DNA from: Octopus vulgaris
Taxonomy: Eukaryota
Assembly: GCA_951406725.2 (NCBI GenBank)
Contig: OX597832.1
Span: forward strand, 70,122,001 to 70,186,000
Direction of reading: 5' to 3'
Length of the DNA: 64,000 nt
In this document: positions 5,731-55,054 of the stretch, one piece after another
Layout of the letters: each line of letters opens with the position of its first letter
How positions within the stretch are numbered: position 1 is the stretch's first letter
Notes under the pieces: model-generated
What the model saw: the letters and a program-made list of their open reading frames with translations, nothing else
What the model was told of the DNA's origin: nothing
Database searches by the model: none
Made by a program: the position numbers and the translations under genes

Positions 5731-5734
<4 letters not shown>

Positions 5735-5917
5735 AAGGGAGTCAGAGAAAGGCAGAATGCCACTTATATCTGAACACTATACAAATATTCCTTTTCTTCT
5801 AATTTTTCTAACTTTAATTATTTAATCGTTACAGTTGAAAAGGTCTCAAAATGACCGAAACCGGTACTGAAATGTTCTTTATAAAATTATTTTAGCATTT
5901 TCTATTTTGACTTGTTT

Positions 5918-5922
<5 letters not shown>
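5731..5922 (+). repeat. Inverted partial pLTR of PLE-1, tail-to-tail across (TA)n
   Basis: Reverse complement of ~5981-6183 with a small deletion. Confidence 0.85.
5832..5869 (+). ncRNA. Minimal type I hammerhead, U3-A8 core variant
   Basis: CAG-TTGAAAA-GGTC tcaaaat GACC-GAAA-CCGG-TA-CTG; palindromic ACCGGT stem III. Confidence 0.75.
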
Positions 5923-5985
<63 letters not shown>

Positions 5986-6033
5986 AAACAAGTCAAAATA
6001 GAAAATGCTAAAATAATTTTATAAAGAACATTT

Positions 6034-6071
6034 CAGTACCGGTTTCGGTCATTTTGAGACCTTTTCAACTG
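6034..6071 (-). ncRNA. Minimal hammerhead (U3-A8) in the 3' pLTR of PLE-1, sense to the RT
   Basis: Reverse complement of the 5832-5869 motif. Confidence 0.75.
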
Positions 6072-6735
6072 TAACGAGTAAATAATTAAATTTAGAAAAA
6101 TTAGAAGAAAAGTTTTTTTAAAGGAATATTTGTATAGTGTTCAGATATAAGTGGCATTCTGCCTTTCTCTGACTCCCTTGTTTGCACTTGTGTGTTCGAG
6201 GTCGTTGTGAATTCTTGGTAGGGTAGAAGAAGAAGACGGCTGATGAGGAGAGGGAGTGAAAAAATTTGGAAGTGCTTTGATTGTTGTATTTTGAATGGTC
6301 AGTGACGGCTAGCAGTTGCAGTTCAATTCAGGAGAATATTTCTATTGAGAGGTTTGTTTATGGAATTTGCGTAGGTGTTTTACTAAAAAGCATTAGTGAT
6401 AAAGTTAAGAGGTAGAAGGTGGAGCAGAAGAAGAAGAAGCTGACGATGTTGATGATGATGATGATGATGATGAAGAAGAAGAAGGAGAAGGAGAAGAAGA
6501 AGATGATGATGATGATGGTGGTGATGATGATGACGACGATGATGATGATAATGATGATGATGATGAAGAAGAGGAGGAAGAAGAAGAAAACAGAGAAGGG
6601 AGAATATGAATGGGTGAAAGTAGTGAGGTGTTGTATGACTTGAAGTTGGCATGTTATGGATTATAGCTGTGATTGGGGTTGATTAGTAATGGATTCTTTG
6701 GAATGTAATATTTGTGTGTGTATATTTCTTTTATT

Positions 6736-8604
6736 CTAAAGTTGAGGTACATTAATCGTTTGTCGTAGACAAAGAAGTGGCCTGTATTTTGTAATAAAGA
6801 GAGTTTCTTTACTTATTCGTTGTCTCGAGGTTGTATCGTCCCTAAATTGGTAGAGGGGGAAAATCCTGAAGTCTGGTGTTTTGTTGTTGGCGCAAGTATC
6901 TATGTGTTGGCTGAAAGCTATTTTTCTGTTTTGGGGAATTTTTATCTGGGATCTGTGCAGGGCCATTCGTTTACGCAAACTATTTTTTGTTTGGCCTATG
7001 TACTGCTCTTGACACCCGGAGCAGGTTAGTGAGTATATTAGGTTCTCCGAAGCACATGTGAAGTTGCTTTTCACTGTAAATCGCTGTCCCTGTTTGAAGG
7101 AGAACTCTGATCCCTCAATTAGATAGTCGCATATCCCGCAATTGGGTCTTCCACATTTTTTTACTGTCGGCTTCTGTGTTGAAGAGTGAATTCGGGCTTG
7201 TGTTAGGAGACTTTTCATGGATTTAGGCTGTCTCTTGCTTTTTATGATCGTGTGTGTTTGGAGGATTGTGTTCATTCTGTGGTCTTTTTTTAGGAGGGGT
7301 ATGTTGTGGAGGATGGTGCCGAAGGCTTCGTTATTGAGAGGGTTGCGTGTGGAAATGTATGGTAAGGCTTTTGGTCGTAAGTTTTTCTTTGATTTGGGAT
7401 GTCTCAGTTCCTTGATGTTAAGTTGAAGGGCACGTTGAATGCACTTGTCAATAAGTGAAGGTGGATAGTTCCTGGTGATAAGGGTATCTTTTAGTTCTTG
7501 TAGTCGTGTGTATCTGGTGTTTGCGTTAGAGACTATAGTGCATATCCTTTTTGCTAGATTGAAGGGGATATTCATCCTGGTGTGTCTGGGGTGGCATGAA
7601 TTGAATGGAAGATATTGCTTAGAGTCTGTAGGCTTATAATATATGTCTGTTTCTATTACATTATTAGCTTTCTTAATGAGGATATCGAGGAAGGGGAGTT
7701 GTTGCTGCCTATATTCCATCGTGAATTGGATGTTTACGTCCAGTCCGTTTAAAATTTCCTGGAATTCTATGAGTTTTTCTATATTTTTATGCCAAAGAAT
7801 GAAACAGTCATCTAGATATCTCTTCCAGTTGTTTTCTATGTAGATGGAGAAAGGGCTGCCATATCTTTCTAGAACCTTACGATACAGACTGATCTCTAGA
7901 TATCCTATGACTAGGTTGGCAAAGGAGGGGGCCATTCGTGTACCCATCGCAGTCCCCGATTTTTGTCGGTAGAAGTTGTCATTGAAGGCGAAGAAGTTAT
8001 TTTCCAGGATGAATTTAACCCCTTCTATCACGAATTCTTTTTTGATGCGATGTGGTAGTTCGTTGGCGTGATTCTCTAGCCAGAATTGGATTGCCTCTAG
8101 TCCTAGGTTGTGGGGGATATTGGAGTAGAGGTTGACTACATCGAAGGATACCAGTATGGTGTTTTTGTTTATAGTATTCGGTAGGTGATTGAGCATATCC
8201 AAGTCGTCCCTTATATAGATTTTGACATGTTTGAGGAGTGGTTTTAACAGGGTGTCTAAAAAGTTACTGAGGCGGTAGGTTTCGCATGCGGGACCTGCTA
8301 TTATGGGTCTCAATTTGAGGTCATTAGGATTAGGGACTTTAATTATTTTGTCTGTAGCTATCTTGCATGCGTTGCTAATTTTCTCACTTTTGTGTATCTT
8401 AGGTATACCGTAGAATTGGCTGGTTTTACTTGTGAAATTGGTCATATAATCATATTCTTTGTCGGTGAGCCCTGCTTTGTATGGGTTTAACATGGATTTT
8501 AGTTCCCTCATTATTTTTTGTTGACTGTAGTTTTGTGCCTTTTCATAGTATGTTGTGTCTTCCAGCATAGAAAGTACTAAGGTTATGTAAAATGTCGTAT
8601 CCAT
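6736..8604 (-). CDS. PLE reverse transcriptase plus GIY-YIG endonuclease; frame continues upstream to ~9078 through two TGA stops
   Basis: LVSFDVVNLYSNIP, GTAMGTRMAPSFANL, WKRYLDDCF, LPFLDI, YYKPTD; CGRPNCGIC linker; NLIY..C..C...YIGQT..LRKR...H. Confidence 0.92.
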   Translation of the reverse strand: MDTTFYITLVLSMLEDTTYYEKAQNYSQQKIMRELKSMLNPYKAGLTDKEYDYMTNFTSKTSQFYGIPKIHKSEKISNACKIATDKIIKVPNPNDLKLRPIIAGPACETYRLSNFLDTLLKPLLKHVKIYIRDDLDMLNHLPNTINKNTILVSFDVVNLYSNIPHNLGLEAIQFWLENHANELPHRIKKEFVIEGVKFILENNFFAFNDNFYRQKSGTAMGTRMAPSFANLVIGYLEISLYRKVLERYGSPFSIYIENNWKRYLDDCFILWHKNIEKLIEFQEILNGLDVNIQFTMEYRQQQLPFLDILIKKANNVIETDIYYKPTDSKQYLPFNSCHPRHTRMNIPFNLAKRICTIVSNANTRYTRLQELKDTLITRNYPPSLIDKCIQRALQLNIKELRHPKSKKNLRPKALPYISTRNPLNNEAFGTILHNIPLLKKDHRMNTILQTHTIIKSKRQPKSMKSLLTQARIHSSTQKPTVKKCGRPNCGICDYLIEGSEFSFKQGQRFTVKSNFTCASENLIYSLTCSGCQEQYIGQTKNSLRKRMALHRSQIKIPQNRKIAFSQHIDTCANNKTPDFRIFPLYQFRDDTTSRQRISKETLFITKYRPLLCLRQTINVPQL

Positions 8605-9227
8605 TAAGACAACAGCACTCCCTTTATCGGCCTCTTTGATTGTTATTGTTTTATCTTGTTTTCATTTGTTCAACTCAGCCCATTCTTTTTTGCTGAAGTT
8701 TGGTTTGTGTTTTTGTTTGTGCATATGTTGATATGGGTAATTTGATATGTGGTCACAGAAATCATCAAGTGTTTTGTTCTTACCTTTAGATGGGGTGTAG
8801 TTACTCCTATTTCTGACTAACGATTCGTCCTCGTTGTATTTATCGTATAGCTCCTCAGTAAGTCTTAATTTTCTTCAGAATTCTGCGATGTCTTCTTTCA
8901 TTTCATTGTAGTTGGGGTGGTGTGGGGTGGGTGTAAACTTGAGTCCTTTGGAAAGTATGTTTATTTGGTTTGCTGTTAGTTCCTTGTGAGTTAGATTGAT
9001 AATTTTTATTACTTTTGGTTCCTCCTGCTTGTTTGGTGCTATCTTGTGTCTCTGTGTTTGCGTATTGGGTCTAAAAAATGAATGCGGTGGTTGGGACGAT
9101 AGCTATTATATAGTTGTTCTTTGTTGATGTGGGGTCTCCTGTTGTGATTTATGGTCTGTGTTCTTGGAGCAGTATTGAGGAGAGCGTCCCGATATCCCAT
9201 ATTCGGGTGTGGTGTTCTAGGAGGCCT

Positions 9228-9683
9228 TCATTGGTAATCATTGCAAGTGGTGCGGATTTGTTGTGCATGGTTGTTTAACCGGTTGATGGGACGAAGATTT
9301 CGTTGGTAACTCTTTTGGGTGGGGATAAGGTTGCAGTGTCTATGCTGTGGGTGTTGATTTATCCTTTCTCTGCTTGAAGTGGGGGTATTCCTGATATTGT
9401 ATCGCTGGCTGCTTATAGAGTTAGGGTTAGGTCCTGTATTCTTTTTTTGATAGTAGTGAAGGTTCCGATTTTTAGACAGGTGTGTATCGGTGTTTGGGTG
9501 TTGTTTTGGTTTTCTTATTTTCTGGAAAGGGTTGTTGGAGGCGTGCTCTGTTTGAAAGACGGCTTCATAGTCTGAGAACCAAGTGGCGCTTTTCTCCCAG
9601 CGTTGGAGAGATTTTAGTTCTTCTTTTTCACAGTCCTCTTTCCATAGTTTGGAGAACTTCTCTTGATCTGGGCCTTGGGTCAT
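9228..9683 (-). pseudogene. PLE-1 ORF1 fragment (charged helical region plus low-complexity tail)
   Basis: WKEDCEKEELKSLQRWEK and NNPF motifs match the ORF1 pieces of PLE-3 and PLE-4. Confidence 0.7.
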
Positions 9684-10073
9684 TTTGTGAATTTCTTCGT
9701 TGATATCTTCATCGATGGATTTTATTTTCTTCTACCTCTTAACTTTATCACTAATGCTTTTTAGTAAAACACCTACGCAAATTCCATAAACAAACCTCTC
9801 AATAGAAATATTCTCCTGAATTGAACTGCAACTGCTAGCCGTCACTGACCATTCAAAATACAACAATCAAAGCACTTCCAAAATTTTTCACCCCTCTCCT
9901 CATCAGCCCTCTTCTTCTTCTACCCTACCAAGAATTCACAACGACCTCGAACACACAAGTGCAAACAAGGGAGTCAGAGAAAGGCAGAATGCCACTTATA
10001 TCTGAACACTATAAAATATTCCTTTAAAAAAACTTTTCTTCTAATTTTTCTAAATTTAATTATTTACGCGTTA

Positions 10074-10111
10074 CAGTTGAAAAGGTCTCAAAATGACCGA
10101 AACCGGTACTG
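10074..10111 (+). ncRNA. Minimal hammerhead (U3-A8) in the inverted 5' pLTR of PLE-1
   Basis: Same motif as 5832-5869. Confidence 0.75.
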
Positions 10112-10197
10112 AAATGTTCTTTATAAAATTATTTTAGCATTTTCTATTTTGACTTGTTTTTTCATATATATCAACTCGTGTGTTCCTTTTCACCCTT

Positions 10198-10262
<65 letters not shown>

Positions 10263-10263
<1 letters not shown>

Positions 10264-10541
10264 CATTAATAAATCTCTGAACGAGATATAAACAGTAACC
10301 GCTCGACAACGTAAAGTGTACTAGCCATCTGAATGTGGCCAGCTACTGGGGGTGGGGTGTTACTGACGCTTTTAGCCCCAGGAGATCAACGTCACCAGCT
10401 GGCCTTAGACTCAATTTCAGTGCCCTTGTGTTATTTGCAAAGGGAGGTCATCCTCCCTCGAAAACCTAAGTGATACATACGGACTATAGTTTCGAGGTAA
10501 TTGCCTCTCGTCAACGCATGGTAAACACCGGTTTTCGATGA
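10263..10541 (-). mobile_element. Retrozyme-like unit family B, left part (split by the LINE)
   Basis: Directly repeated from 15938; contains the hammerhead; continues at 15861 after the LINE; monomer ~356 nt. Confidence 0.8.
10476..10520 (-). ncRNA. Minimal type I hammerhead (U3.G8 core)
   Basis: CATGCG-TTGACGA-GAGG caatta CCTC-GAAA-CTATAG-TC-CGTATG on the minus strand. Confidence 0.8.
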
Positions 10542-10793
10542 TAATTCTTTATTATGATTATATAATCAGTACTTAGAAGAACAATACAGAACATACATAC
10601 AAAAAACAGTTAAGTGGTTCGTTTAAAAATTTCCAAAATATATGGATTATTCATTATACAAAAAACTGTATATAAATTGTCATTTGCATTGACTAATATA
10701 ACATTACATTAGATTGATATCTTACCGATATATTTTAAACCCCAGCAACCTATAAAAGCCCCGCAGCTTTCCTTTCCTCTTCAACATCCTTAG

Positions 10794-13049
10794 TTAAACT
10801 GGGTTTCTGACACCCACCTTTTTCGCCACTTCCTTCCATCTTTTTTCATACACACTTCGTGGTAAGGTCTTCTTTTCCAGCCACATTTTGCTCTTCAGAT
10901 GATATCTGAAGTAAGTGAGCAAGCCGGGGCCTGAGACAAAGGATCCTATTGCGACTCCTTCCATTCTTGTATGCCACATGCATTCTTTTACTACTGCAAC
11001 CGTGCAGTGAAAACATGCCTCACCTTCCTTCGAGAGTCCTGTTGGCGGTATCATCTTAATCATAGACTCAGCCGACAGCTGTACTCGTCCCAGATGCGAT
11101 AACACGTGTTCTGCGTAACTTATCAAGTCTGACAACTGCCGACAGTGTACAAAAGCGTGCTGGACGGTTTCATCGTCCAACCCGCATCTTGGACATGTCG
11201 GTGGCACTGAAATTCCGTGCCGCGATAACTTCTCGCGAACAGGTAAAGCATTCCTATAACACTGCCAGGCCAGGGATCTTTGGAAATTATCCAAATACCC
11301 CGTCCTGAAAGTCTTTTTAAACAGGTTGGTAAGCTGGTCTTCGTCGAACCCCAGAGCCCCTCCTAGAACGTCGTCGTTCTTTGCCTCTACAAGCCTGCTA
11401 TAAAATACCGAGGTGGTATTTCCGCTGCCGGCCTTGTCCGCCTTATGGATCAGCGTGAGTGCCCGTCGACACTCCTTTTGCCATAAAGTCAGATTCCGTC
11501 TTTTGATGTAACCGGGTTTAAAATTCACTAAGGAAGCCGGTCTCGGGAAAAATTCCCCTGCCAGCGGACTCCACACCTTATTACCCTCCAGGTGGTGCCA
11601 GAGATGCTTCAGCCTCAACGCATGTCTGCGCATCGTCAACCAAGGCATTCCTAACCCACCCTTTAACGGTTCCTGGCAGCAAACGGAGCGCCTCACAAGT
11701 GGCTTTCCTCCCTTCCACAAAAAGCGGGAAAGGATTCGCTCCAACTTGCTAAGCCATGAATCGGGGCAAGGGACAACGGTCAGGCGGTAAGTGATTACAG
11801 ATGCAATAAACATCTGTACCACCTCCGCCCTTCCTTTCAAGGACAGAAACCTTCCGGACCAGGTCCGTACTACGGCCTCCACCTTGCCCGTCACCTCACT
11901 CCAATTCCTCTCCGTTTGGGAGTCTGGCCCAAAGCAAACTCCTAACAACTTAACAGGACCATCTGTCCAGTGTCCCACGGCACTGGACGATATCGACTTG
12001 CTCCTCCAGGTGCCGAGGCATAAGCCAATCGACTTGTCCTTGTTAACTTTTGCTGCTGCCACCGCCTCGTATCCTCTGATAGCATCTTCTACACAATGTA
12101 GCTGAGCCTCATTGGACACGATCTCATCCGGGTTACTTCCCAGCCTCTCCAACTTTCGCAGCAATGGCTCGAGAGCCAACACGTACAAAAGTGGTGACAA
12201 GGGGCAACCTTGACGAACTGAACATTCGATCGAAAACGGTTCCGTTAGGTAACCGTTTATCTGGACGGTGGACTTGCTGCCGCTATACATTGCGGAGATC
12301 CACCCGCGAAATTCAGGGCCCAGTCCAGCCGCTTCGAGGACCGTCGCCAGGTACTTATGGTCTACCCTATCGAACGCTTTACTTTGGTCTAACTGGACCA
12401 TTACCCCGCCCTTGCCGGTTAATTTACCCACCCTATCTAAGGTGTAGCGTATAAGGTGAAGATTGTCCTGGATCAACCTGCCTGGAATTGCAAATGTCTG
12501 TGCTTTCCCGACAAGTTTCTCCACGACAGTCGTCAACCTTTTTGCCAACACGTTGGCCAAAATCTTTAACTCTACATTAAGTAGAATTATGGGCCTGTAA
12601 TTACTAATGTTATCCCCCTTGCTCGAATCTTTCTGGATTAGCGTCATCACTCCCCGGCTTACAGAACTGGGAATTCTCCCGTTCTGCTGCCAGTTCGTGT
12701 AGACGCCTGCCAGTATTCCCCCGAACAAGTCCGGCATACTTTGATAAAACTCGTAGGGCAGACCATCCAGCCCCGGCGACTTCTCTCCGGCGCATCCGGC
12801 CAGTACCCCCTCTATCTCAGCGGGAGTGATCGCTCCTTCACAGCACTCCACCTCACGCCCCGAGAGCCGTGGTCCGCCGGCTAGGAAGTCCTGTAAGGCC
12901 TTCCCCCGCTCCAGCGAACCACCACCCCCGAACGCGCGGGCGAAATGCTGGTGAAGAAACTTTTGCATCTCCTCCTGTCCATAGATCTTGTGTCCATGTT
13001 CGTCAGTTAAAGACTTGATTGAAGCTTTGTTGCCTCTCTGACTCTCCAC
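10794..13049 (-). pseudogene. LINE ORF2 RT and C-terminal Zn-binding region, catalytic YADD deleted
   Basis: KSPGLDGLPYEFY, NYRPI, DQSKAFDRVDH, VRQGCPLSPLLY, CPRC...ETVQHAFVHC; no YADD after LEPLL. Confidence 0.88.
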
Positions 13050-13112
13050 TCGACGGGCCCATCCGGCAACGTTAATACCTTCTCGTTTCCCTGCGCGTAG
13101 CTTAGCTCTAAC

Positions 13113-14135
13113 TCAGCAACCTTCGTGTTTGGAATTAAGGTGATGGTACAATACCGTCCTTGCCGCCATCACTCCGGATGCAGAGCCAGATTCCATTGCC
13201 TCGTTTAGATTCTTAACTAAATCGTCCTCTATCCTAGACCTATCTAACCTTAGCTGATTGCTAAATCTAATGGACTCTGAACGAATGGCTCTTTTGAGGG
13301 AGTGCCACCAGCTATTATTAATGATGGTGCCACATAATGCCCTCTGTACTAACACCTTAATCCGGGTACGGAAGTCTTCACAATTCAAAATAGACTTGTT
13401 CAGCTTCCAGTACCCGGGTCCCTGTCTATGACACTTATCTAATTGGACCCTACAAGTCACAAATTTGTGATCCGTGTAAGGCACAATGTGAAACTGTGGA
13501 CAACTAAACATATCCTTATCTCTTTTTCTAACGAATATCCTATCTATATACGATCTGCGTGAGCCGTCGTTGTTACTCCACGTCCACTGTGGAACGCTCG
13601 GCTCATCCAGTCGATAACGGTCTACTAGATTAAAGCTCTCTAGTAGACCCTTGAGGCTAGGGTTCCCCTTCCTATTGGTTGAGCCAACACTGTCGACCCG
13701 CGCTTCGAGGAGAGTGGTAAAGTCCCCTACTAAGACTACCGTTTTCGACGTCACTAAAAAGTGCTCCTGATTCCGAAAAAAACCCGACTGCCTATTCTCA
13801 TTCGGAGCGTAGACAGCTACCAACCTGAAGGACTGTTTACTTACGTGGGTCACATCCAGAACGACCAGCCTGCCTTCTGGGTCCAGAAAGACAGTACTTA
13901 CCTGCAAGTCCAAGCGCTTCCTGATAAGGACTGCCACGCCCCTTCCTCTTCCTCGGCTAGGAGAAATACATTTCTCGAAACCATTTAGAAAAGGCGAGAA
14001 CGCTTGGGCCCCGTTCATCTTGGACTCGGTTACAATAGCTACGTCCACTCTGTGTGTCGTGAGGTCGTCCAGGAGACAAATTTGTATCCATTTCGACCCC
14101 ATTCCACGCACATTCACACAACCCAGCTTAGCCAT
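13113..14135 (-). CDS. LINE ORF2 APE endonuclease; same frame as the RT, separated by one TGA
   Basis: NVRG, VYAPN, LVGDF, WTW, SYIDRIF, TDHK, GPGYWKLN motifs. Confidence 0.88.
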   Translation of the reverse strand: MAKLGCVNVRGMGSKWIQICLLDDLTTHRVDVAIVTESKMNGAQAFSPFLNGFEKCISPSRGRGRGVAVLIRKRLDLQVSTVFLDPEGRLVVLDVTHVSKQSFRLVAVYAPNENRQSGFFRNQEHFLVTSKTVVLVGDFTTLLEARVDSVGSTNRKGNPSLKGLLESFNLVDRYRLDEPSVPQWTWSNNDGSRRSYIDRIFVRKRDKDMFSCPQFHIVPYTDHKFVTCRVQLDKCHRQGPGYWKLNKSILNCEDFRTRIKVLVQRALCGTIINNSWWHSLKRAIRSESIRFSNQLRLDRSRIEDDLVKNLNEAMESGSASGVMAARTVLYHHLNSKHEGC

Positions 14136-14159
14136 TGTCGGAGAGAGAGAAAAAAAAAC

Positions 14160-15608
14160 TTACGGTTGGGACAGGGAGCATGACAGTTTAAATCTGCATG
14201 CTTCCCCTTCTTCCTCCCTTGTGGTCGTAGCTGCAGGGCTCTTAACCGGCGTTGCCATCGGGCTCAGGGTAGGTGTGGTTGCCGGGGTTATAGTAAGTTT
14301 ACCCTCCAGTATTTCGTTAGTAACGTCTCTGATAAGGTTATTTTTTAAATGTTCTTGCAGTGTTTTTTCCTTCCTCTCGTCTTCCTTTATTTTTGCAAAA
14401 CGAGTGGTCGACTTAGTGTCTGAAGACTTACTGAATAATTTCAGTTTTGAAAATTTAAAATACTTGAACACTCTTTCGTTTTTCTCGTCGAATGCTACAA
14501 CCTTTTCATTTTTTTTAATCAATTTTTTCCAATCTTGTCTTATGGGGAGGGGCTTGGCGAACTGTGTTCCAATGAATACAGTGCCGTGGGGGTGGGGCTG
14601 GGGAATTTGTTTTGGATGTATCTCTGCGGTGTTTGCTGATTTTTTCTTTGTTTGGGGAGGGGAGTCCAGGATATTTTCTTTTTTTCTTTTGTGTTTCACC
14701 TGTGTAAATTCCATTTGTTCATTTTTATCTTCCGTTTCGATTCCCTTCCTTGTCGCAGTCTTGGGGTCTTTTTCCGCCTTTTCTTTTTCTGTGTTTGAAG
14801 CACTTTGAGGAGGGGCTTCGCTGTTTTTCTTTTTTTTTATGCAGTTCGAGCGGACGTGACCCTTTTCACCACATTTGAAACACCTAAGTCTGCGCCCCTC
14901 CACCGACACTCTCATTGTAATTCCTTCCTCAATAAATACCCTATCGGGTAAGTTTTCTAGCACATTATTTTCTGCTTGAACGAGGAGTTCGAGCGCTTGT
15001 CCCTTCCAGTGTACCTCCTCTTTCCTTTTCATCTGCAGAATTGAGACTTTCTGCTCTACGTCGTGCAGAACCGCCGCTGCTACCCACATTATCTCATATC
15101 CTCTTGGAATGTCTTCCACATATAGTTTCGCAGTTCTTTTTCCCATATATGTAGGTAGTAACATGATGTCCTCACTTTTTAAGGTCATCGATGAAATCTC
15201 TCTTGCCACATCAGCCGAGTCGAAATGTGCTTCAACGGTAGCGCTGCGGGCACCTCGACCGACGTGGCGAATTTTGCTCCACACCGGGGACAAGCACTTC
15301 TCTACTATTTCGTTCTTCACGTCCATTATTTTTTTCTCTTTGTTACTGTAAACCTTGTATACGACTATCTTAGCCTTTATTTCCTGTAATTTCGCTTGCG
15401 GCGGTACCAGTTTAATTTCATTGCCTTCCTTTTTTACCAAGTTCCGGTATTCGAATAACTGTTCAATTTTAAATTCTACTTCCGTTATGTTTCCGCCCAC
15501 TGCGGCCGAAAAAGACTGTTTTTTAACCTCGATATCCTTCTGTTTTCCCATCACGGGAAAGTCGCTCCTCGACGCCAAGTCGCCCCTCGACGCCAAGTCG
15601 AACTCCAT
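14160..15608 (-). CDS. LINE ORF1, gag-like with CCHC zinc knuckle
   Basis: 482-aa ORF immediately upstream of ORF2; CFKCGEKGHVRSNC. Confidence 0.85.
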   Translation of the reverse strand: MEFDLASRGDLASRSDFPVMGKQKDIEVKKQSFSAAVGGNITEVEFKIEQLFEYRNLVKKEGNEIKLVPPQAKLQEIKAKIVVYKVYSNKEKKIMDVKNEIVEKCLSPVWSKIRHVGRGARSATVEAHFDSADVAREISSMTLKSEDIMLLPTYMGKRTAKLYVEDIPRGYEIMWVAAAVLHDVEQKVSILQMKRKEEVHWKGQALELLVQAENNVLENLPDRVFIEEGITMRVSVEGRRLRCFKCGEKGHVRSNCIKKKKNSEAPPQSASNTEKEKAEKDPKTATRKGIETEDKNEQMEFTQVKHKRKKENILDSPPQTKKKSANTAEIHPKQIPQPHPHGTVFIGTQFAKPLPIRQDWKKLIKKNEKVVAFDEKNERVFKYFKFSKLKLFSKSSDTKSTTRFAKIKEDERKEKTLQEHLKNNLIRDVTNEILEGKLTITPATTPTLSPMATPVKSPAATTTREEEGEACRFKLSCSLSQP

Positions 15609-15860
15609 TTCTCAAATTATGAGAACCAATTTTTCAATAAAAAAAAAATTACCCCGAAGGTAATAACAATGTTTATACACAGAATTTTCAGCCCCGTAGG
15701 GCGAAAATTACTGTCACACAACGGACAACTGTTCAATTCACGAGCAACACAAACAACGACGAACAAAAAACGAACTCACTCAACAAAATAGGCAGCTAAC
15801 TTCTCAATACGCAGATGAAAGAGTGGTCTCTAGACGAGTCAAAACACCGGTTTTCGATGA

Positions 15861-16491
15861 AGGAGACCTTTGCAAATAATAATATTTAACGTTTTTCACA
15901 GCAACCACAGTCACTGATTTAGAAAAACTGTCTGAAAGCATTAATAAATCTCTGAACGAGATATAAACAGTAACCGCTCGACAACGTAAAGTGTACTAGC
16001 CATCTGAATGTGGCTAGCCACTGGGGGTGGGGTGTTACTGACGCTTTTATCCCCAGGAGATCAACGTCACCAGCTGGCCTTAGACACAATTTCAGTGCCC
16101 TTGTGTTATTTGCAAAGGGAGGTCATCCTCCCTCGAAAACCTAATTGATACATGGCTAGTACACTTTACGTTGTCGAGCGGTTACTGTTTATATCTCGTT
16201 CAGAGATTTATTAATGCTTTCAGACAGTTTTTCTAAATCAGTGACTGTGGTTGCTGTGAAAAACGTTAAATATTATTATTTGCAAAGGTCTCCTTCATCG
16301 AAAACCGGTGTTTACCATGCGTTGACGAGAGGCAATTACCTCGAAACTATAGTCCGTATGTATCACTTAGGTTTTCGAGGGAGGATGACCTCCCTTTGCA
16401 AATAACACAAGGGCACTGAAATTGTGTCTAAGGCCAGCTGGTGACGTTGATCTCCTGGGGCTAAAAGCGTCAGTAACACTCCACCCCCAGT
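15861..16491. mobile_element. Retrozyme-like family B, right part: tandem copy (to 16153) plus inverted near-complete monomer (16152-16491)
   Basis: 15938-16153 repeats 10263-10478; 16152-16491 is inverted and contains the empty LINE target. Confidence 0.8.
16316..16360 (+). ncRNA. Minimal type I hammerhead (U3.G8 core)
   Basis: CATGCG-TTGACGA-GAGG caatta CCTC-GAAA-CTATAG-TC-CGTATG. Confidence 0.8.
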
Positions 16492-16930
16492 TGACATTGC
16501 CGTATAGGGAGATTGTTCTCTCTCCAAAGCACTGCCGTAGCAACTGCGTTGTTTCTTTTGAGGTATGAGCACTTGCCCCATCTTTTTGGAACCATGTGTG
16601 AGGTATACTTTGAACGGCCAGGTGCAAAAAGTCTCAGTCATTAATACCTGAAAGAGAGGCTTTACGTCAACAAACCGGAAACCCTGATGCAACCGAAGAA
16701 CATCAATAGATAAATCAAAGAAGAAATTGGCTCTGAACCTCTTGAGGGTGTTATGATGCAAGTTTTGGAAAGAGTGTGGGCGTGCGAAGCCTTTAAACGG
16801 CTGCCGTGATGTAATGGTGTTACAAAATTTGACTTGTGCATATTAATTTCCATTATGTCCTTTATATTGTCGCAAAATATCATGCATTTATTTGTAAAGT
16901 TATGGAAGTTATTATAAATTAAAACCCATC
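16492..16930. pseudogene. Rearranged Tc1/mariner transposase remnant
   Basis: WFQKDGASAHT...FGERTIS on minus; LKERLYVNKPETL-like piece on plus. Confidence 0.55.
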
Positions 16931-19430: not shown

Positions 19431-19522
19431 ATATATTATGCAGTTCTCAGGTTACAGCCATAAAGAAAGGATCAGAGTATACAAAGGAGCCATGAAAAAA
19501 AGAAATTTGAAAAAAAGAAATT

Positions 19523-19731
19523 TGTGTGTCTGTGTTTGTCCCCCTAGTATTGCTTGACAACTGATGCTGGTGTGTTTACGTCCCCGTCACTTAGCGGTTC
19601 GGCAAAAGAGACCGGTAGAATAAGTACTCGGCTTACAAAGAATAAGTCCCGGGGTCGAGTTGCTCGACTAAAGGCGGTGCTCTAGCATGGCCGCAGTCAA
19701 ATGACTGAAACAAGTAAAAGTGTAAAAAGAG

Positions 19732-19732
<1 letters not shown>
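19523..19732 (+). mobile_element. SINE 3' half
   Basis: Matches the 3' body of the SINE family. Confidence 0.8.
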
Positions 19733-19767
<35 letters not shown>

Positions 19768-20828
19768 CAATGCTATTACCCGTTTGTACATGCAGTCTAT
19801 ATATTTTTAAATGTCGTTGTTTAATACAACTTACGTATAAACACAGTCATATATAAATGCCAGAGGGTGTCAATGCATATACTCATGTATGTATCCTGTA
19901 AGCTCAAATAAACATCACAAATATACACATGCAAACATACACAAATTTACACGCGCGCACACACACACACACACACACTCACATATATATATATATATAT
20001 ATATATATACGCAAACACACACACGTATACTTAAATATAAACATACACAAAAACATACCTACTTCACATACGTACCTCAAATAGGTTGACGCAGATACAT
20101 ACATTCATTCATATAAGCACATACACGCATACATACGTGCATACATACATACATACGTGCATGCATGCATACATACATACATACATACATACATACATAC
20201 ATACATACATACATACATACATACATACATACATACATACATACATACATAAACGCACATATGCACACATATAAATTAAGTTAGCGTTTTCCGAAAGTGA
20301 TTTCTTAGGACGGCTTGAAGCAATTACAAATCTCTTTTATGTTTTTATCACCTGAATCCAGAAGATAGAAACATGGCGTCATTGCGGTGACGGGGAGAGG
20401 GACGGGCGGGAGGAGGAAAGAGGAGAAGGAAGAAAGAGACGACGAGGCTGGGGAATTGATGCAGACTGAACGTTATCTTCGCATTACTTCCCAACACAAT
20501 GATCAACGCGTTCTCCTACCCTGCACACACACACACACTCATACACACACACATGTATAAGTATGCCTGTATAAATATATATGCATATATAAGAATATAT
20601 GCACATATAATCGTAATTATAGATATATGTGTATGTATGTATATAAAGTTGACATGCATATAATTTAATATGTGTGTATATTTACGCCTGTGTATACGTA
20701 CGTGCCTCAATAAATACATGTTTATATATGTTTATGTATAGACATTTATTTGTAAATATATATATATATATATATACATAACATTATACATGAATGTATA
20801 TACATATATATAAGTATATATATATATC

Positions 20829-21252
20829 TTTCTCTTTTTACTCTTTTACTTGTTTCAGTCATTTGACTGCGGCCATGCTGGAGCACCGCCTTTAGTCGAG
20901 CAAATCGACCTCGGGACTTATTCTTTGTAAGCCCAGTACTTATTCTATCGGTCTCTTTTGCCGAACCGCTAAGTGACGGGGACGTAAACACACCACCATC
21001 GGTTGTCAAGCAATGCTAGGGGGGCCAAACACAGACACACAAACACACACACACACTCATATATATATATATATATATATATGCATATATACGACAGGCT
21101 TCTTTCAGTTTCCGTCTACCAAATCCATTCACAAGGCATTGGTCGGCCCGAGGCTATAGCAGAAGACACTTGCCCAAGATGCCACGCAGTGGGACTGAAC
21201 CCAGAACCATGTCGTTGGTAGGGAAGCTACTTACCACACAGCCACTCCTGCG

Positions 21253-21255
<3 letters not shown>
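20829..21255 (-). mobile_element. tRNA-derived SINE, full length
   Basis: Reverse complement of 28316-28736. Confidence 0.88.
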
Positions 21256-21291
<36 letters not shown>

Positions 21292-21536
21292 GCACATACA
21301 TACATATATATATACATATATATATATAAATACATATATGTATATATATATATACGTATATATATATATCTATATATATTTGTGTGTTTGTGATTTAGTA
21401 TGTGAATGTGTGTACGCCGTTTCATGATAAACAGAGACATAAATAGACAGTCACACACAAAGACATGCACAAATACATATAAATATACACACTTAAACAC
21501 ACACACTTACACACACGCACACAATATGTTCGTATG

Positions 21537-28082: not shown

Positions 28083-28315
28083 GCATACAAATATACACAC
28101 ATACGTAAAAGCGTACACTTACACACATATGTACACATCTATCTGCACATACATACACACATGTATGTACGTGTATGCATTCACAGGCGTATATTCATAA
28201 TATAATCTCCGAAAGTGAGTGTTCTCTGTTTTTCTTTACATATGTACTTGCGAGCGTGTTGAATTTGTGCATGACAACTCAGCGATTCACAACCGGTGTT
28301 AGTTTGTCTATATAT

Positions 28316-28487
28316 AGGCGCAGGAGTGGCTGTGTGGTAAGTAGCTTGCTAACCAACCACATGGTTCCGGGTTCAGTCCCACTGCGTGGCATCTTGGGCA
28401 AGTGTCTTCTGCTATAGCCCCGGGCCGACCAATGCCTTGTGAGTGGATTTGGTAGACGGAAACTGAAAGAAGCCTGTCGTATATATG

Positions 28488-28522
<35 letters not shown>

Positions 28523-28736
28523 TTGTGTGTCTGTGTTTGGCCCCCCTAGCATTGCTTGACAACCGATGGTGGTGTGTTTACGTCCCCGTCACCTAGCGGT
28601 TCGGCAAAAGAGACCGATAGAATAAGTACTGGGCTTACAAAGAATAAGTCCCGAGGTCGATTTGCTCGACTAAAGGCGGTGCTCCAGCATGGCCGCAGTC
28701 AAATGACTGAAACAAGTAAAAGAGTAAAAGAGAGAG
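28316..28736 (+). mobile_element. tRNA-derived SINE, full length
   Basis: AGGCGCAGGAGTGGCTGTGTGGTAAG (A box), GGTTCAGTCCC (B box), internal microsatellite, AAAAGAG tail. Confidence 0.9.
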
Positions 28737-28923
28737 AATCCCCGTCATTTAGGGTTAAGACAGAAAGAAAGTAATAGAATAAATTGGAGACTTTAGAGTA
28801 CATAATGGAGTAGATTTCATCGACTACAACCCTCAAGTCATCGTACAGGCATGGACACGCTCCACTGACTGTAATCAGTACTAAAATAAAATATATGCAT
28901 GTGGGGGGGGGGACAAGGAGACG

Positions 28924-32258: not shown

Positions 32259-32302
32259 TCTCACACAAATACAAACGCACACACTCTCTCACAGATATAT
32301 AC

Positions 32303-32680
32303 ACGCGGAAGTGAGGCTGTGTCATAGCGAGTATGCTTCCCAACCACATGGTTTCGGGTTCAGTCACACTGCGTGGCACCTTGGCCAAGTGTCTTCCGCT
32401 ATAGCCTTGGGTCGACCAAAGTTTTGAGTGGATTTGGTAGACGGAAACTGAAAGATTCCCGTCGTATATGTGTGTATGTGTGTTTGTTATAACTTGATAA
32501 CCAGCATTGATGTCTTTACGTCCATGAAACTTAGCGATTTGCAAAAGACTTCTAGTACAAAAAGTACAAGGCTTAAGAAGAAATAAGTAATGGGATTGAT
32601 GCATTCGACTAAAAACGTAAATTGTTCAAGGCGGTACCCCAGCATGCTCGCACTCAAATCACTGAAACAAGTAAAAGAGT
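32303..32680 (+). mobile_element. Diverged older copy of the tRNA-derived SINE
   Basis: Same head (CCAACCACATGGTTTCGGGTTCAGTC) and tail (ACTGAAACAAGTAAAAGAG). Confidence 0.8.
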
Positions 32681-32702
32681 ATATGTATATATATATATAT
32701 AA

Positions 32703-32753
<51 letters not shown>

Positions 32754-32779
32754 AGTATATATATATATATATATATATA

Positions 32780-32865
<86 letters not shown>

Positions 32866-35243: not shown

Positions 35244-35533
35244 CAACAATTGAGGGTAAAATTAATTAATTATTAATCAATTTCACCAAGTGTTCAGTAT
35301 GCAAAGGGACCATTTAAGGCGAATTCAAATTATTACATTATATAAAAGGGCTTAGTAAAATAAATTACTTTGCCGCATACTGAACTCATTAGAAATAGCA
35401 GCTAAAAAACTTTTTTAAAGCTATTTCTAATACTTAAAGAAAATCTCTCTCATATAGTGTTTGCTTAACTCAACTCACAAAAGTTTGGGGGTAAGGACAT
35501 CAAAAAATCAAAAAATCAAATGCAAAGGTTATT

Positions 35534-35585
35534 TGAGAACGTACGTTTCAAGATTAGTCAAAACGACACTTCTATCATCAGCTCA
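35534..35585 (-). ncRNA. Type I hammerhead (family D, inverted copy)
   Basis: Reverse complement of 35981-36032. Confidence 0.72.
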
Positions 35586-35980
35586 GAAACTCCTTGGTTT
35601 GGATTTGAAAACACTGAAAGTAAGAACATACCCTTTCGGCTTCTCATCGCTTTCGAAGATCTGCTCGTAACTAACAGTGCCAACAAACTCAAATAAGCAA
35701 GCGAACACTTGGTGAAATTGATTAATAATTAATTAATTTTACCCTCAATTGTTGAAATTATAATTAATCTCCCTCTAATTAATGCTTCGGATTTTACCGA
35801 AATAAGCATAGTGTTTGATGATTTTAACCCACGCTGGTGGAAAGGGGAGAACAGAAATTCTCCGCTTGCTTATTTGAGTTTGTTGGCACTGTTAGTTACG
35901 AGCAGATCTTCGAAAGCGATGAGAAGCCGAAAGGGTATGTTCTTACTTTCAGTGTTTTCAAATCCAAACCAAGGAGTTTC

Positions 35981-36032
35981 TGAGCTGATGATAGAAGTGT
36001 CGTTTTGACTAATCTTGAAACGTACGTTCTCA
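35981..36032 (+). ncRNA. Type I hammerhead (family D)
   Basis: TGAG-CTGATGA-tAGA agt GTC gtttt GAC taa TCTt-GAAA-CGTACG-TT-CTCA. Confidence 0.72.
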
Positions 36033-36480
36033 AATAACCTTTGCATTTGATTTTTTGATTTTTTGATGTCCTTACCCCCAAACTTTTGTGAGTTGAGTTA
36101 AGCAAACACTATATGAGAGAGATTTTCTTTAAGTATTAGAAATAGCTTTAAAAAAGTTTTTTAGCTGCTATTTCTAATGAGTTCAGTATGCGGCAAAGTA
36201 ATTTATTTTACTAAGCCCTTTTATATAATATATATATATATATATAAACTTATATATATGTATGTATGTTTGTATGTATAACAACTGGCGAAAAGTTATT
36301 CAACATTTGGATAATTGAACGTAAATACATGTAAAAAACAAACAAGCTTGTGTGTATGTGTCTCTGTCTATATTTCTATGCATATTGTTTAGTGCATATT
36401 ATATGTGTCTGTGTATGCATATGTGTATATCTGCGTGTGTGAGTATGTGTGTGAGTGTATATATATATATATATATATAT

Positions 36481-39400
36481 ACCTTAAATAACAAAATCGA
36501 AGACTCAAATCTACTCGCCCGGGAAAGTAAAAACAGTGAAGACACAACTCGCTACACTGACCAGGTTAGTAATGATTTACAACTGTTATACACAACACTA
36601 AATTCAATTTTCATTAACAAATCCGACAATAAACAACACACACCAAATGAAACACACCAGAACATCATACGCACTCAAATCAACCTAGCAAAAAGAAAAA
36701 TAGGAAACATTTGGAATACAAACCTGCACAATAGAAAACTCGCCTTCTGGAACATGATAAAAGATTCCAACAAAGCAGATATATACGAGGGATGGATGAA
36801 CTCAACACCAATTGTCCTCCCACGTAAATTCCAGATAAAAATAATTCCCAGCGAGCCTGACGGACAGAGAACTATTAGGGAAAGGTCAGCTCTATCCAAT
36901 TTAAGATCAGAAATAGAACTACTAAAACTTAGGGCCTCCACAAATGAGGAAAAATATAAAAGCATCGACGAGGAGATGCACAATGAAATACAAAAACAAA
37001 CAGAGGGACAACCCCTCGAAAATACACTAAATCATTGGAAGGAAACCTAGGAAAAAAGCAACGATTTCTTCCAAAGATATGCGTCAATTTTCAAAAATGA
37101 ATTGGGTACAGATAATCCCTTTCTTAAGAAAATTACAAAAAATAAAAAAGAAAAACCGAACAGCCCACAAACCACCCCCAACTATCCTCCATACACTAGA
37201 AACAGAATTCACCCACAACCAACATTTTCGAACCACGCAAGACTTAACAGGAAACAAGCTGACAGACAATGCGTCTATGAAATAGATTACACCAAAAACA
37301 GAACACACCAACAATATCCTAATACCAGACCCAACCACCACATAACAGCACAAAGCAACACTAGAATAAGAAATACACCAGACACAAGTCGCTACTACCC
37401 CATGAACCAAAATTACTGGTCCCCACCGAACACAAGACAAACGCAAAAAAACACTAAGTCAAGCAACATCCCACATACAAGCAATTCGAAACAAAAATAT
37501 TTCACATACAGAAATTTTACACACACCACAAACGAAAACAACCATAGATTCCCACACACACACAACAATCGAGAGGAAACAATACCACCGTTCCCCCGAA
37601 CCAATATCACACAACCTCACAGACAACTCATACAAACAAAATTACACCCAACATTTTTTAGCCCGGGACCAGAGACACCAGGACACAGGCTGGAACCTAG
37701 TAATAAGGAAAAACCGAAGATAATCAACCTTTCAACCAAACCTCTCTCTAACATAAACATTGACATCCTCTCAAAAGGGCTCAAATTTACGCCAACTCCA
37801 CGCAGAGCCAACCTAAATGATATCAAGGATAATATAACAGAATTTTGCAGAAAATTAAGACTAGCAGAAGCATCAACCAGTTTTAATACTGAAGATGAAT
37901 CACTAGTCAAGAACAAAAGTGAACACATCCCCCACAAAGGAAGAAATAAAGATCTTGACGAATTCTGCAGCCACATTGGGAACTTTCCCTACCATACTAT
38001 ACATAAACAGACAGTTAACTCAAATCTTAACACTACACAATGGAAGGAACTGATAGAACTTCAAAATGATGAAGATATAACCATTAAGGAAGCAGACAAG
38101 GGAAGTGCAGTTGTAATAATGGATACATCATACTATAGAAATCTTGTAATTTCCTTGCTTGATGACAATCAACATTATGAAAAAATCACCAACTACACCC
38201 CGCAAAAAATAATGAAAACTCTATCTTCACTAATTAAAACCCATGAAAAGGAACTAACAACCAAAGAGATTGACTTTCTAACAAACTTTAAATGCAAGCC
38301 TAGCCTCTTCTATGGTCAGTCAAAAATTCATAAAAGCCAAATTATAAATGAAACCTTTAAAAAATCACCAAAGACATACATACACACACCTAACCCGGGG
38401 GACCTAAAACTACGACCCATTGTAGCTGGCCCAAAATTAAGTCTATTTATGGACATTCTCCTGAAACCCTTCCTTAAACATATCGATAGCCATATCAGAG
38501 ATGACTTGAATATGTTAAACCACCTTCCAAAAAAAAGCCAAGGAAGAAACAATCATGGTTTCATTTGATGTAGTTAATTTATATACCAATATACCTCATA
38601 ATTATGGACTAGAGGCAATACAGTTCTGGCTGGACCAATTTCCGGCAGAAATACCAAAAAGGATCAGTAACGAATTCATTACTAAATCGGTTGAATTCAT
38701 CCTACATAATAACCACTTCATGTTTGACAATACATTTTACCGTCAGTAATCCGGAATTGCTATGGGTACAAAGGCAGCACTAGTCATTGCGAACCTAACA
38801 ATGGGCTACCTGGAATAATTATTTACCAGGAATCTTTATCAACCTTTGGAAACCCCCCCTCTCAATACATAAAAGAGAATTGGAAACGATTCCTGGACGA
38901 TTGTTTTATACTCTGGAATGAAAACACAGATAAACTTCTAAAATTCAAAAACCTATTGAACAGCATCAACCCAAATATACAGTTCACAATGCAATACAAC
39001 CAAAAGGAGCTCCCATTCTTAGATATACTAATTAAAAGAATTAACCTTAAAATAGAAACAGACATTTTTACAAAGCCACAGACGCCAAACAATACCTACT
39101 TTTTGATTCATGCCACCCAAGACACACTAAAACAAACATCCCCTTCAACCTTGCAAGAAGGATATGCACAATAGTGTCAACAAAATACAAGGAACTTTAG
39201 ACTACAATAACTCAAAAACACCCTAATTGACAGGCACTACCCAGCTCAACTCATAGAGGATGGGATCAGACGTGCAACAGAAATCGACATAGAAACTTTG
39301 AGAAAAGTTCAACATAACAACACACCTTACCGAAAATACTGCCTTACATATCCACATACAACCCCAGAAACAAAGAAGCCTTCACCATCATCACCCAGAA

Positions 39401-40275
39401 TTTACCAATACTTCATAAGGACCCCAAATTAAAGGAAATTCTAAACATACATAAAATCATTAAAAGCTACAAACAACCTAAATCACTTAAAAAGACTCTC
39501 ACAAAGGCAAAATTGCTTCCTGAAATTACGGATACAAAAGTAAAAAGATGTGGTAGACCAAACTGTGCAACATGCCCAAACCTTCTAGAAGGATCAGAAT
39601 TCCTCTTCAAAGAGGGACAAAAATTCAAGATCAAATCTAATTTTACTTGTGCCTCTGAAAACATAATTTATGTCATAAGATGCTCGGGCTGCCACCAAAA
39701 CTACGTGGGGTCCACGGGACTATCACTCAGACGTAGATGCTCACTTCATCGACAACAGATTGCATTCCCAGAATACAGAATGATACCCTTTAGTGAGCAT
39801 ATTGAGAAATGCGTAAAGCAACTACTACCACAGTTTTTAATCTTTCCATTTTATCAATGTGCTAATTAGACTAAACAAGGAAACATTCTTCATTGAAAAA
39901 TATAAGCCCAAACTTAACCACTCTAACATTCTTATACAGAGAAACTCACCCCATTAAAAAAAAGGCAAGAAATATAAAGCGATTATCTCCCTTACACCGG
40001 AAGAAATCACTTATTACCTCCCCTTACCTGGAACTCTTCTTTACACTTCTTAACGAAATCATAACAATGTTTTGTGAAATTTGAAAAGTTAAACACGAAA
40101 CCGGTAATATCTTCAAAAACTATGTCAATGTATGAAAAAAATTTATAACATTCTTCTGACATAATGACTCAAATATATATTTTTTAACCTTTTAAAACAA
40201 GCATTCTGTAGTATTTTTCACTTTTTACTATTTTCTATATATTCAACCACGTCCTTTCACACACCAACTTTCTCA

Positions 40276-44828: not shown

Positions 44829-45544
44829 ATTTTAAAAAGTTAAGTGTAATAAAAAAGTTCATAATTGTTTCTTGCTGGTCTCAACAGACTCCATGTGGTT
44901 GTTTTTAGCTGTCTTATGTGTCCGAATGGTCAGTGGCTGAAATGGCAGTAGCAGCAGCAGCAGTGGAGGACTGTTGATCGTAGTAGTAATAGTAGTGACC
45001 ATGGTGGTTGTAGTAGTAGTAATAGTAGCAGCAGTCGTAGTGACCGTGGTGGTAGTGGTAGAATTCCATTTTTCTTTTCGGAAGACCAATGTATTGTTTT
45101 AATGTTCTTGGCCCAGGTTGTTCACACTTGGTCCGAATTTTCTAATGAAATAAAGTTCTTTATTTTGGCGTTGAGTGAAGATTACGCGGTCACTGAATTT
45201 GTAAAGTGAGCAAATTGTGAATTTGCGATTTTTATTTGAAGCACATCTATCTATGTGTCCGCTGACTGGTATTTTTCTGTATTCAGGATTTCTAATTTGG
45301 GATTTATGCATCGGCATCCTTTTACGTAAGCTGTTTTTTGTATGGCCTATATACTGCCTATTGCACCCTGCGCATGTTAAGACGTACATTTTCTGATGCA
45401 CAGGTGAAGTTTGCTCTGATGGAAAATTGATGGCCTTGTTCTAATGTGATATCTGAACCTTCTAGTGGCGTTTTCAAACTTCTTTTTTATAAATATATAA
45501 GATCTACATATATATCTAATATATAAGATCTACACTTATTTTAA

Positions 45545-45576
<32 letters not shown>

Positions 45577-45794
45577 TCTCTCTCTCTTTTACTTGTTTCA
45601 GTCATTTGACTGCGGCCATGTGGGAGCACCGCCTTTAATCGAGCAAATCGACCCCGGGACTTATTCTTTTGTAAGCCCAGTACTTAATCTATCGGGGTCT
45701 CTTTTGCCGAACCGCTAAGTAACGGGGACATAAACACACCAGCATCGGTTGTCAAGCAATGCTAGGGGGACAAACACAGACACAAACACACACA

Positions 45795-45838
<44 letters not shown>

Positions 45839-46010
45839 CATATATACGACAGGCTTCTTTCAGTTTCCATCTACCAAATCCACTCACAAGGCTTTGGTCG
45901 GCCCGAGGCTATAGTAGAAGACACTTGCTCAAGGTGCCATGCAGTGGGACTGAACCCGGAACCATGTGGTTGGTAAAAAATATACTTACCACACAGCCAC
46001 TTCTGCGCCT
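45577..46010 (-). mobile_element. tRNA-derived SINE, full length
   Basis: Reverse complement of the family sequence. Confidence 0.88.
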
Positions 46011-46037
46011 ATATATACATATATATATATTTATATA

Positions 46038-46147
<110 letters not shown>

Positions 46148-54507: not shown

Positions 54508-54674
54508 TAGGCGCAGGAGTGGCTGTGTGGTAAGTAGCTTGTTTACCAACCACATGGTTCCGGGTTCAGTCCCACTGCGTGGCACTTTGGGCAAGTGTCT
54601 TCTACTAAAGCCTCGGGCCGACCAAAGCTTTGTGAGTGGATTTGGTAGACGGATACTGAAAGAAGCCCGTCGTA

Positions 54675-54742
<68 letters not shown>

Positions 54743-54964
54743 TGTGTGTGTTTGTGTGTCTGTGTTTGTCCCCCTAGCATTGCTTGACAACCGATGCTGG
54801 TGTGTTTATGTCCCTGTTACTTAGCGGTTCGGCAAAAGAGACCGATAGAATAGGTACTGGGCTTACAAAAGAATAAGTCTCGGGGTCGAGTTGCTCGATT
54901 AAAGGCGGTGCTCCAGCATGGCCGCAGTCAAATGACTAAAACAAGTAAAAGAGAGAGTAAAAGA
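54508..54964 (+). mobile_element. tRNA-derived SINE, full length
   Basis: Same family as 28316-28736. Confidence 0.9.
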
Positions 54965-54972
54965 TTATACAC

Positions 54973-55054
<82 letters not shown>

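Follow-up and report, generated by a model that had tools for sequence, protein, structure and literature searches.

The DNA considered here is a stretch of 64,000 nucleotides from Octopus vulgaris (contig OX597832.1, positions 70,122,001 to 70,186,000 of the forward strand; hereafter the window). On its minus strand lies a long interspersed nuclear element (LINE) of 5.3 kb, which interrupts a unit of a repeat that carries a putative hammerhead ribozyme in the same orientation (Table 1). The original prediction, made from the letters of the window, held that a 19-bp duplication splits a repeat monomer of ~356 nt, that the uninterrupted target is present in an inverted copy nearby, that LINE and ribozyme are co-oriented with the predicted cleavage site ~60 nt past the LINE 3' end, and that the LINE has no poly(A) tail, all of which is borne out. 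The direct repeat is exact and is the only string of at least 10 nt common to both 121-nt junction windows; upon deleting the LINE and one copy of the duplication, a monomer of 356 nt is restored; the empty site is found at 16295-16313 of the inverted copy; cleavage is predicted at a GUC, after 10482; and the LINE ends without poly(A), with only an AATAAA 6 nt before its terminus. Judging by other copies, the duplication in the window is made up of 16 bp plus TTT, the TTT being the LINE's own 5' end. From its 5' end, the element encodes a first open reading frame (ORF1) with a CCHC knuckle, and then an apurinic/apyrimidinic (AP) endonuclease, a reverse transcriptase (RT) and a zf-RVT domain. 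This copy is inactive, as it has an in-frame stop and a deletion of 16 codons that removes the RT catalytic motif.

Table 1. Coordinates in the window of the LINE, the repeat that it splits and their sequence features
Feature	Position	Strand	Remarks
Downstream part of split repeat	10260..10541	-	Duplication, hammerhead and first 222 nt of next monomer; stops at outer fixed 3' end beside (TA)n tract
Type I hammerhead, extended stem I (predicted)	10458..10538	-	Core UUGACGA, stem II GAGG/CCUC, palindromic stem III CUAUAG; predicted cut between 10482 and 10481; from fold and covariation on 32 flanks
3' copy of target duplication	10523..10541	-	19 bp, exact; family core of 14 bp is 10526-10539
Full-length inactive L1/Tx1-group LINE, family A	10542..15841	-	5' end probably reaches 15844; AATAAA at 10548-10553; no poly(A)
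ORF2, RT and zinc-binding part	10797..13112	-	RVT_1, zf-RVT; 16-codon deletion at RT catalytic motif near 12120
ORF2, AP-type endonuclease part	13116..14135	-	Exo_endo_phos; in-frame stop 13113-13115 parts it from RT
ORF1, one CCHC zinc knuckle	14163..15608	-	PF00098, 21 bits against a cut-off of 20.8
5' copy of target duplication	15842..15860	-	Predicted transcription start (+1) at 15858
Upstream part of split monomer	15861..16155	-	Runs to inversion point CATG, 16152-16155
ATCAGT motif at -60	15913..15918	-	Predicted core of snRNA-type proximal sequence element
Inverted partial copy with empty site	16152..16491	+	Motif 16237-16242, +1 at 16297, hammerhead 16316-16360, predicted cut after 16354

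The interrupted repeat is a non-coding, dispersed unit of 356 nt with one hammerhead per unit and 2,834 candidate places in the genome. The 30 loci fetched hold between one and three units apiece; units may be truncated at the 5' end or inverted, and AT-rich duplications of only about 10 bp flank the insertions. Its 3' ends fall mostly at two places, with 29 of 33 at unit positions 170-176 (19 ends) or 216-222 (10 ends), and such a pair of fixed 3' ends a few dozen bases apart is described as the "tail" signature of Penelope elements (PMC11167929). Because of these two ends, the truncations and inversions, the AT-rich sites and the tandem hammerhead units, the repeat fits an animal retrozyme, a class reported to consist of non-autonomous Penelope derivatives (bioRxiv 10.64898/2026.07.22.740005). 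A search for an autonomous Penelope-like partner of the repeat gave no match in 30 of the 148 listed GIY-YIG loci (6,136 candidates), nor in the Penelope-like element that neighbors it in the window. A more distant family of hammerhead repeats has a 375-nt unit, which across 231 nt shares ~60% identity with the 356-nt unit; an empty copy of it occupies 552-877 and 1315-1632 of the window, split by another short repeat. At L134-L135 (G000:C1:194.34-194.35 Mb) a third variant of the hammerhead repeat (start ATCACCAGCTGACC) is seen, the equivalent site of which holds a stack of several ORF1-bearing elements. Contig depth over the inverted copy was lower at 16228-16320 than at 16336-16479 in four of four runs guessed to be RNA, a difference from which nothing is concluded, since contigs cannot rank parts.

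As Rfam returns no hammerhead match in the window at gathering or E-value thresholds, identification of the ribozyme turns on covariation. The core of the window copy reads UUGACGA, not CUGANGA. Thirty-two of the 40 downstream flanks of the LINE were aligned, omitting three tandem junctions, two flanks of the distant family and three with deletions. In this alignment 90% of cells are paired, as compared with 30-44% in slid controls, and 13 of 29 pairs have changed on both sides, counts that are inflated by the kinship of the sequences. The 3-8 tertiary pair is CG in 16 flanks, UA in 11 and UG in five, with the window copy carrying the U3-G8 wobble, and stem II lacks its first, basal pair in 16 of the 32. 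The presence of YUGANRA, GAAA and UH, of stems I-III and of the 3-8 pair supports a type I hammerhead in the repeat. Stem III is exactly palindromic in 94 of 102 motifs tallied, which predicts that the hammerhead would act as a dimer; dimer-acting amphibian motifs likewise are described with a palindromic short stem III (PMC7229834). The earlier placement of the LINE 2 nt from the hammerhead stands as far as proximal stem I is concerned, which starts at 10520 and so leaves 2 nt to the duplication. Even so, the site belongs to the ribozyme itself, as the 5' arm of an extended stem I (fold z = -3.85). With stem I spanning the whole target site, the LINE would nick right where the structured RNA begins. 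The inversion point in the window lies 3 nt past the predicted cut and was considered as a trace of cleavage, an idea that we rejected as other loci invert at many positions.

In the 2.8-Gb genome, the LINE family to which the window copy belongs (family A) has 169 candidates for its 3' end, 40 of which were scored. A single site is common to all 40, of which 35 end in the 356-nt repeat, two in the distant 375-nt hammerhead repeat and three in tandem, where a regenerated duplication is followed by another LINE. The upstream half of the repeat is in register at 36 of the 39 visible 5' junctions (two of these with deletions), the other three showing an inverted fragment, a rearranged locus and a (TA)n tract. 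The usual duplication is 14 bp; where both sides can be compared, 22 of 34 sites are exact over these 14 bp and nine have one mismatch. Seven sequence variants of the duplication occur, each found on both sides of the LINE, and the repeat must therefore be a pre-existing target and not a part of the LINE. Intact repeat sites are occupied by a LINE in one case among the first 30 in chromosome order. For comparison, Kojima takes more than 20% of flanks of one type, together with a duplication, as target specificity; here the figure is 40 of 40. The flank comparison proposed along with the original prediction has thus come out in its favor, for family A and likewise for the family described next, and we regard site-specific insertion of the LINE into these hammerhead repeats as very nearly certain.

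Family B is a sister family with 82% DNA identity to family A. Its census gave 246 candidates, of which 40 were scored and the 3' ends of 30 fetched. Twenty-seven of the 30 are on site, with 19 in the hammerhead repeat, four at nucleotide 1 of U2 and four at a regenerated site; one of the others is off target, one is rearranged and one is without its end. The off-target copy (L248) is placed in sequence that looks like a short interspersed repeat of the window.

Full-length family B LINEs are found at +1 of clustered U2 small nuclear RNA (snRNA) genes of two promoter types (L130-L132, C3:20.81-20.83 Mb; L133, C23:43.31 Mb). Over 5.5 kb these U2-resident copies share 98.3-99.4% identity with one repeat-resident copy, from which their endonuclease differs little or not at all, and they nest within the youngest repeat-resident branch of family B (13 rows, support 97/94). 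Between the 14-nt U2 duplication and the 5' untranslated region they carry a 14-nt leader of retrozyme type that starts at ATCG, which, we infer, is what an RNA begun at +1 of the repeat would leave. Within the U2 cluster the sharing of changes is mosaic, which suggests gene conversion among the copies. One truncated, related LINE ends at +1 of U1 in the U1 cluster (L234/L235, C18:49.05 Mb), the sole match to this pattern. The view that the LINE targets ribozyme repeats is thus to be divided: all 40 scored copies of family A do lie there, but the ribozyme is probably not the recognition cue, because near-identical copies sit at +1 of U2, where there is no ribozyme.

The same target is also used by a 1.8-kb element with ORF1 and no ORF2, which is stacked with LINEs (L142:4670-6458, L147, L258). 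Its ORF1 is 28-34% identical to that of the window LINE, and we take it to resemble the non-autonomous elements of HAL1 type. Another stack, at L136-L137 (C1:216.76 Mb), has its copies parted by a different duplication (AACAGCGGAC...).

The hexamer ATCAGT offers a candidate explanation of what the targets have in common. Counted from the predicted start, it stands at -57 to -61 in all 20 U1 loci examined, which are of two promoter types and include 18 from one cluster, in all 18 U2 loci that are free of a LINE (three types; the two occupied ones were set aside) and in 52 of 59 captured repeat sites, while it precedes none of 14 U6 hits, many of which are probably pseudogenes. In the distant hammerhead family the motif is at -58 or -59 (two exact cases and one variant). 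It is thus likely, on the arrangement of these motifs, that the base targeted by the LINE is the start site of an snRNA-type promoter, and a hammerhead satellite of newts is reported to use a promoter of this type (PMC2220036). An AT-rich stretch at -35 to -25 raised the alternative of a polymerase III promoter of U6 type. This was rejected, given that the U6 hits are without ATCAGT and that T-runs begin the LINE.

We favor, with a probability of about 0.7, the reading that the LINE inserts at snRNA-type start sites by promoter context and uses the promoter for its own transcription. The repeat would then be a non-autonomous Penelope-type element that is transcribed by polymerase II from a U1/U2-type promoter. 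Just before +1, the AP endonuclease would nick on a two-part signal, ATCG at +1 to +4 and YGG at +10 to +12, with promoter context (bound SNAPc or open chromatin) narrowing thousands of signal matches to these sites, and a second nick would be made at +14. Since the LINE sits 14 nt behind +1, its RNA would begin with the first 14 nt of the host, and the duplication would rebuild a full ribozyme or U2 coding sequence behind the LINE, severed from its promoter. The hammerhead would cleave read-through RNA 60 nt beyond the end of the LINE, although a dependence of the LINE on this cut is no part of the proposal. The targets do have such a signal in common, as ATCG (ATAC in U1) with YGG or YAG at +10 to +12. 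The string TTY|ATCG-N5-YGG occurs 7,475 times in the genome, 1,033 times with ATCAGT upstream (control, 15), and no mapped insertion of family A or B is at a free-standing match, so that this signal by itself does not suffice. An older family B copy at L061 has a family A copy next to it toward the promoter, and there is no ribozyme behind that A copy; family A is the later arrival there because the downstream junction base of the B copy tracks the repeat and not the end of the A copy. A more specific proposal, that the LINE lineage is a promoter parasite which homes on U1/U2-type promoters via SNAPc or promoter chromatin, is tentative, and we would rate it at somewhat less than even odds. Under that proposal, moves between ribozyme repeats and splicing-RNA genes would need no change of endonuclease.

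Several observations weigh against promoter context as the guide. The +1 is itself a prediction, and ATCAGT was recognized only by its position, in the clustered U1 and probably pseudogene-rich U6 samples described above. The off-target family B copy (L213/L248) carries neither signal, the U1 case is a single 5'-truncated copy with a deletion at its 5' junction, and the leader at U2 counts as one event and not four, given the derived changes common to all four copies. In the tandem on C3, no changes are private to the downstream copy, against eight private and 10 shared ones in the upstream copy; by this count the younger copy seems to have inserted where there is no ATCAGT at -59, in which case the motif would not be strictly required, although gene conversion within the U2 cluster might obscure the dating. 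Finally, U2 agrees with the ATCGCTACCTGG repeat subfamily at nine of its first 12 nt, and sequence alone may therefore explain part of the target switch. These last two points favor a rival view in which the endonuclease recognizes a longer DNA signal, about -4 to +14, as is reported of other Tx1 elements, with no promoter factor or chromatin state involved, the position at start sites being due to selection that keeps elements landing behind a promoter. The AT(C)G and the YGG or YAG stand at equal spacing in all targets, and the endonuclease is described as the main determinant of target choice in the Tx1 clade (PMC4494074). Yet the youngest branch of family B uses ATCGAAGACCGG, ATCGCTACCTGG and ATCGCTTCTCGG alike, so the signal would have to be degenerate, and of the ~6,400 genomic matches of a degenerate signal without the motif none is seen occupied. 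Nor does a position-weight matrix built from 34 occupied repeat sites single out U2, since hundreds to thousands of background positions score at least as well in each Mb. This matrix is weak, mirrors the conservation of the repeat and not the preference of the enzyme, and was not used as motif evidence, as its sites were chosen by requiring ATCAGT. Recognition by sequence alone consequently strikes us as unlikely.

Specificity might instead be set by RNA, through annealing of a hammerhead-cut read-through tail or of the 14-nt leader to the nicked site. The lack of poly(A) and the full hammerhead restored behind the LINE by the duplication would suit such a scheme, as would junctions of family B with 2-4 nt in common with the bases before +1, and two loci (L034, L038) at which an A in the 5' duplication replaces the T of the local subfamily, as though a donor leader had overwritten it. 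But 3' flanks fit the local subfamily or pure U2 and never a donor tail, U2 and U1 are without a ribozyme, the leader at U2 is appended and not annealed, and single mismatches between duplications are within the range of later mutation, all of which makes RNA-assisted targeting quite improbable. Least credible of all is that LINE and repeat move as one composite, or that the pattern reflects duplication of one ancestral insertion. Repeat sequence does lie on both sides of nearly all copies, and some copies of the U2 cluster do look duplicated. Family A copies, however, are ~92-97% identical to the window copy while the subfamilies of their flanks are 70-94% identical to the window monomer; in the 5'-truncated copies L036, L037 and L053 the junction with the upstream half is at the usual position; a second repeat family, 60% identical, and U2 are used as well; and the local variants duplicated on both sides refute the idea outright.

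As to its affinities, the ORF2 of the window LINE has Exo_endo_phos, RVT_1 and zf-RVT domains, and its best solved relatives are structures of human L1 ORF2p (E 4e-53). A CCHC zinc knuckle in ORF1 is typical of Tx1 as opposed to vertebrate L1. A quick RT tree puts the LINE in a 10-row clade of unnamed proteins (support 100), outside a 12-row clade of vertebrate L1-like sequences (100); its deep forks are weak and it includes no characterized Tx1 reference. The label of a Tx1-type LINE therefore holds for the two reading frames, the AP endonuclease, RT and zinc domains, the CCHC ORF1 and the target specificity, but on the RT tree membership of the clade is putative. The closest parallels are Tx1L of Xenopus, which lies in the piggyBac-type Tx1D, and the crocodilian Tx1-Mar, Tx1-8_Crp, Tx1-4_AMi and Tx1-9_AMi, likewise AP-endonuclease LINEs that prefer another mobile element and form tandem copies around the duplication, and for which co-transcription from the target has also been proposed (PMC4494074). 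Those elements are described in DNA transposons or long terminal repeat elements (PMC4494074), whereas the octopus LINE hits a hammerhead retrozyme, its site is predicted to be a transcription start, and U2 is a further target of the same enzyme. Insertion into U2 genes, sometimes in tandem, is described for Keno, of the Tx1 clade, and for Utopia, which has a restriction-like endonuclease; in these the downstream U2 flank runs from nucleotide 39 and the gene is split (PMC4640811). The octopus copies adjoin nucleotide 1, with the whole coding sequence behind the LINE, and most lie outside U2, which is only a side target; identity with Keno was accordingly rejected.

The 356-nt repeat, for its part, resembles animal non-LTR retrozymes, which are described as Penelope-derived tandem units of 150-450 nt with a type I hammerhead, a palindromic short stem III and a GC content below 50% (PMC7229834; bioRxiv 10.64898/2026.07.22.740005). 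It differs in being known from sequence alone, self-cleavage and circular RNA being putative, and in having no autonomous partner in the loci examined. A term search finds no occurrence of Tx1, promoter or snRNA in the text of that preprint. Satellite 2 of newts is alike in having a hammerhead unit reported with an snRNA-type promoter (PMC2220036). The Penelope-like PAc is alike in its two fixed 3' ends a few dozen nt apart, its AT-rich insertion sites and the hammerhead in its unit, but is described as encoding its own RT and GIY-YIG protein (PMC11167929), whereas the octopus repeat encodes nothing. The 2026 octopus repeat annotation lists L1-Tx1 families, and the terms hammerhead, ribozyme and snRNA do not occur in the text searched (PMC13282606). 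In the literature searched we found no LINE that targets a hammerhead repeat or an snRNA start site, though Repbase Reports, Dfam, Kojima and Fujiwara 2004 and supplements lie outside that search and could hold a prior note. Among other retroelements, Ty3 of yeast and TRE5-A of Dictyostelium insert at a fixed distance from small-RNA promoters via contact with TFIIIB, their targets being polymerase III genes.

Other elements crowd the window. The neighboring Penelope-like element, at 5731-10249, has a minus-strand frame (6739-8661) with an RT and a GIY-YIG match just under cut-off, terminal repeats in direct and inverted order, and a minimal hammerhead of its own (UUGAAAA core, ACCGGU stem III) at about 5830, 6073 and 10072; compared with the 356-nt repeat, it shows no match. 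Two further stretches, 37763-39694 and 41193-43481, are 65-69% identical to its frame. Downstream of the inverted copy, a fragment at 16492-16850 cuts that copy off ahead of its usual 3' end; its translation presumably resembles a Tc1/mariner transposase, judging by a motif. A near-perfect inverted repeat of 370 bp lies at 35334-36232, and the short interspersed repeat mentioned above is present in at least seven places (872-1325, 19521-19764, 20746-21379, 28309-28737, 32295-32780, 45483-46132 and 54423-55054).

These results add hammerhead retrozymes as a new target class for site-specific LINEs, and +1 as a new site in U2. For an invertebrate retrozyme, they also locate the likely promoter and transcription start. 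Because the switch of target took place with almost no change of protein, how Tx1-type elements choose and change their targets becomes directly testable, and the system offers a possible route to U1- or U2-derived heads on Tx1 elements, the origin of which is left as a question in PMC4494074. Targeted insertion, moreover, could make use of a LINE that senses promoter context. If true, promoter homing would be the polymerase II counterpart, in an animal LINE, of the tethering of Ty3 and TRE5, with a protein contact that is hypothetical, and the octopus genome would harbor three layers of parasitism: Penelope, the retrozyme, and the LINE together with its ORF1-only derivative.

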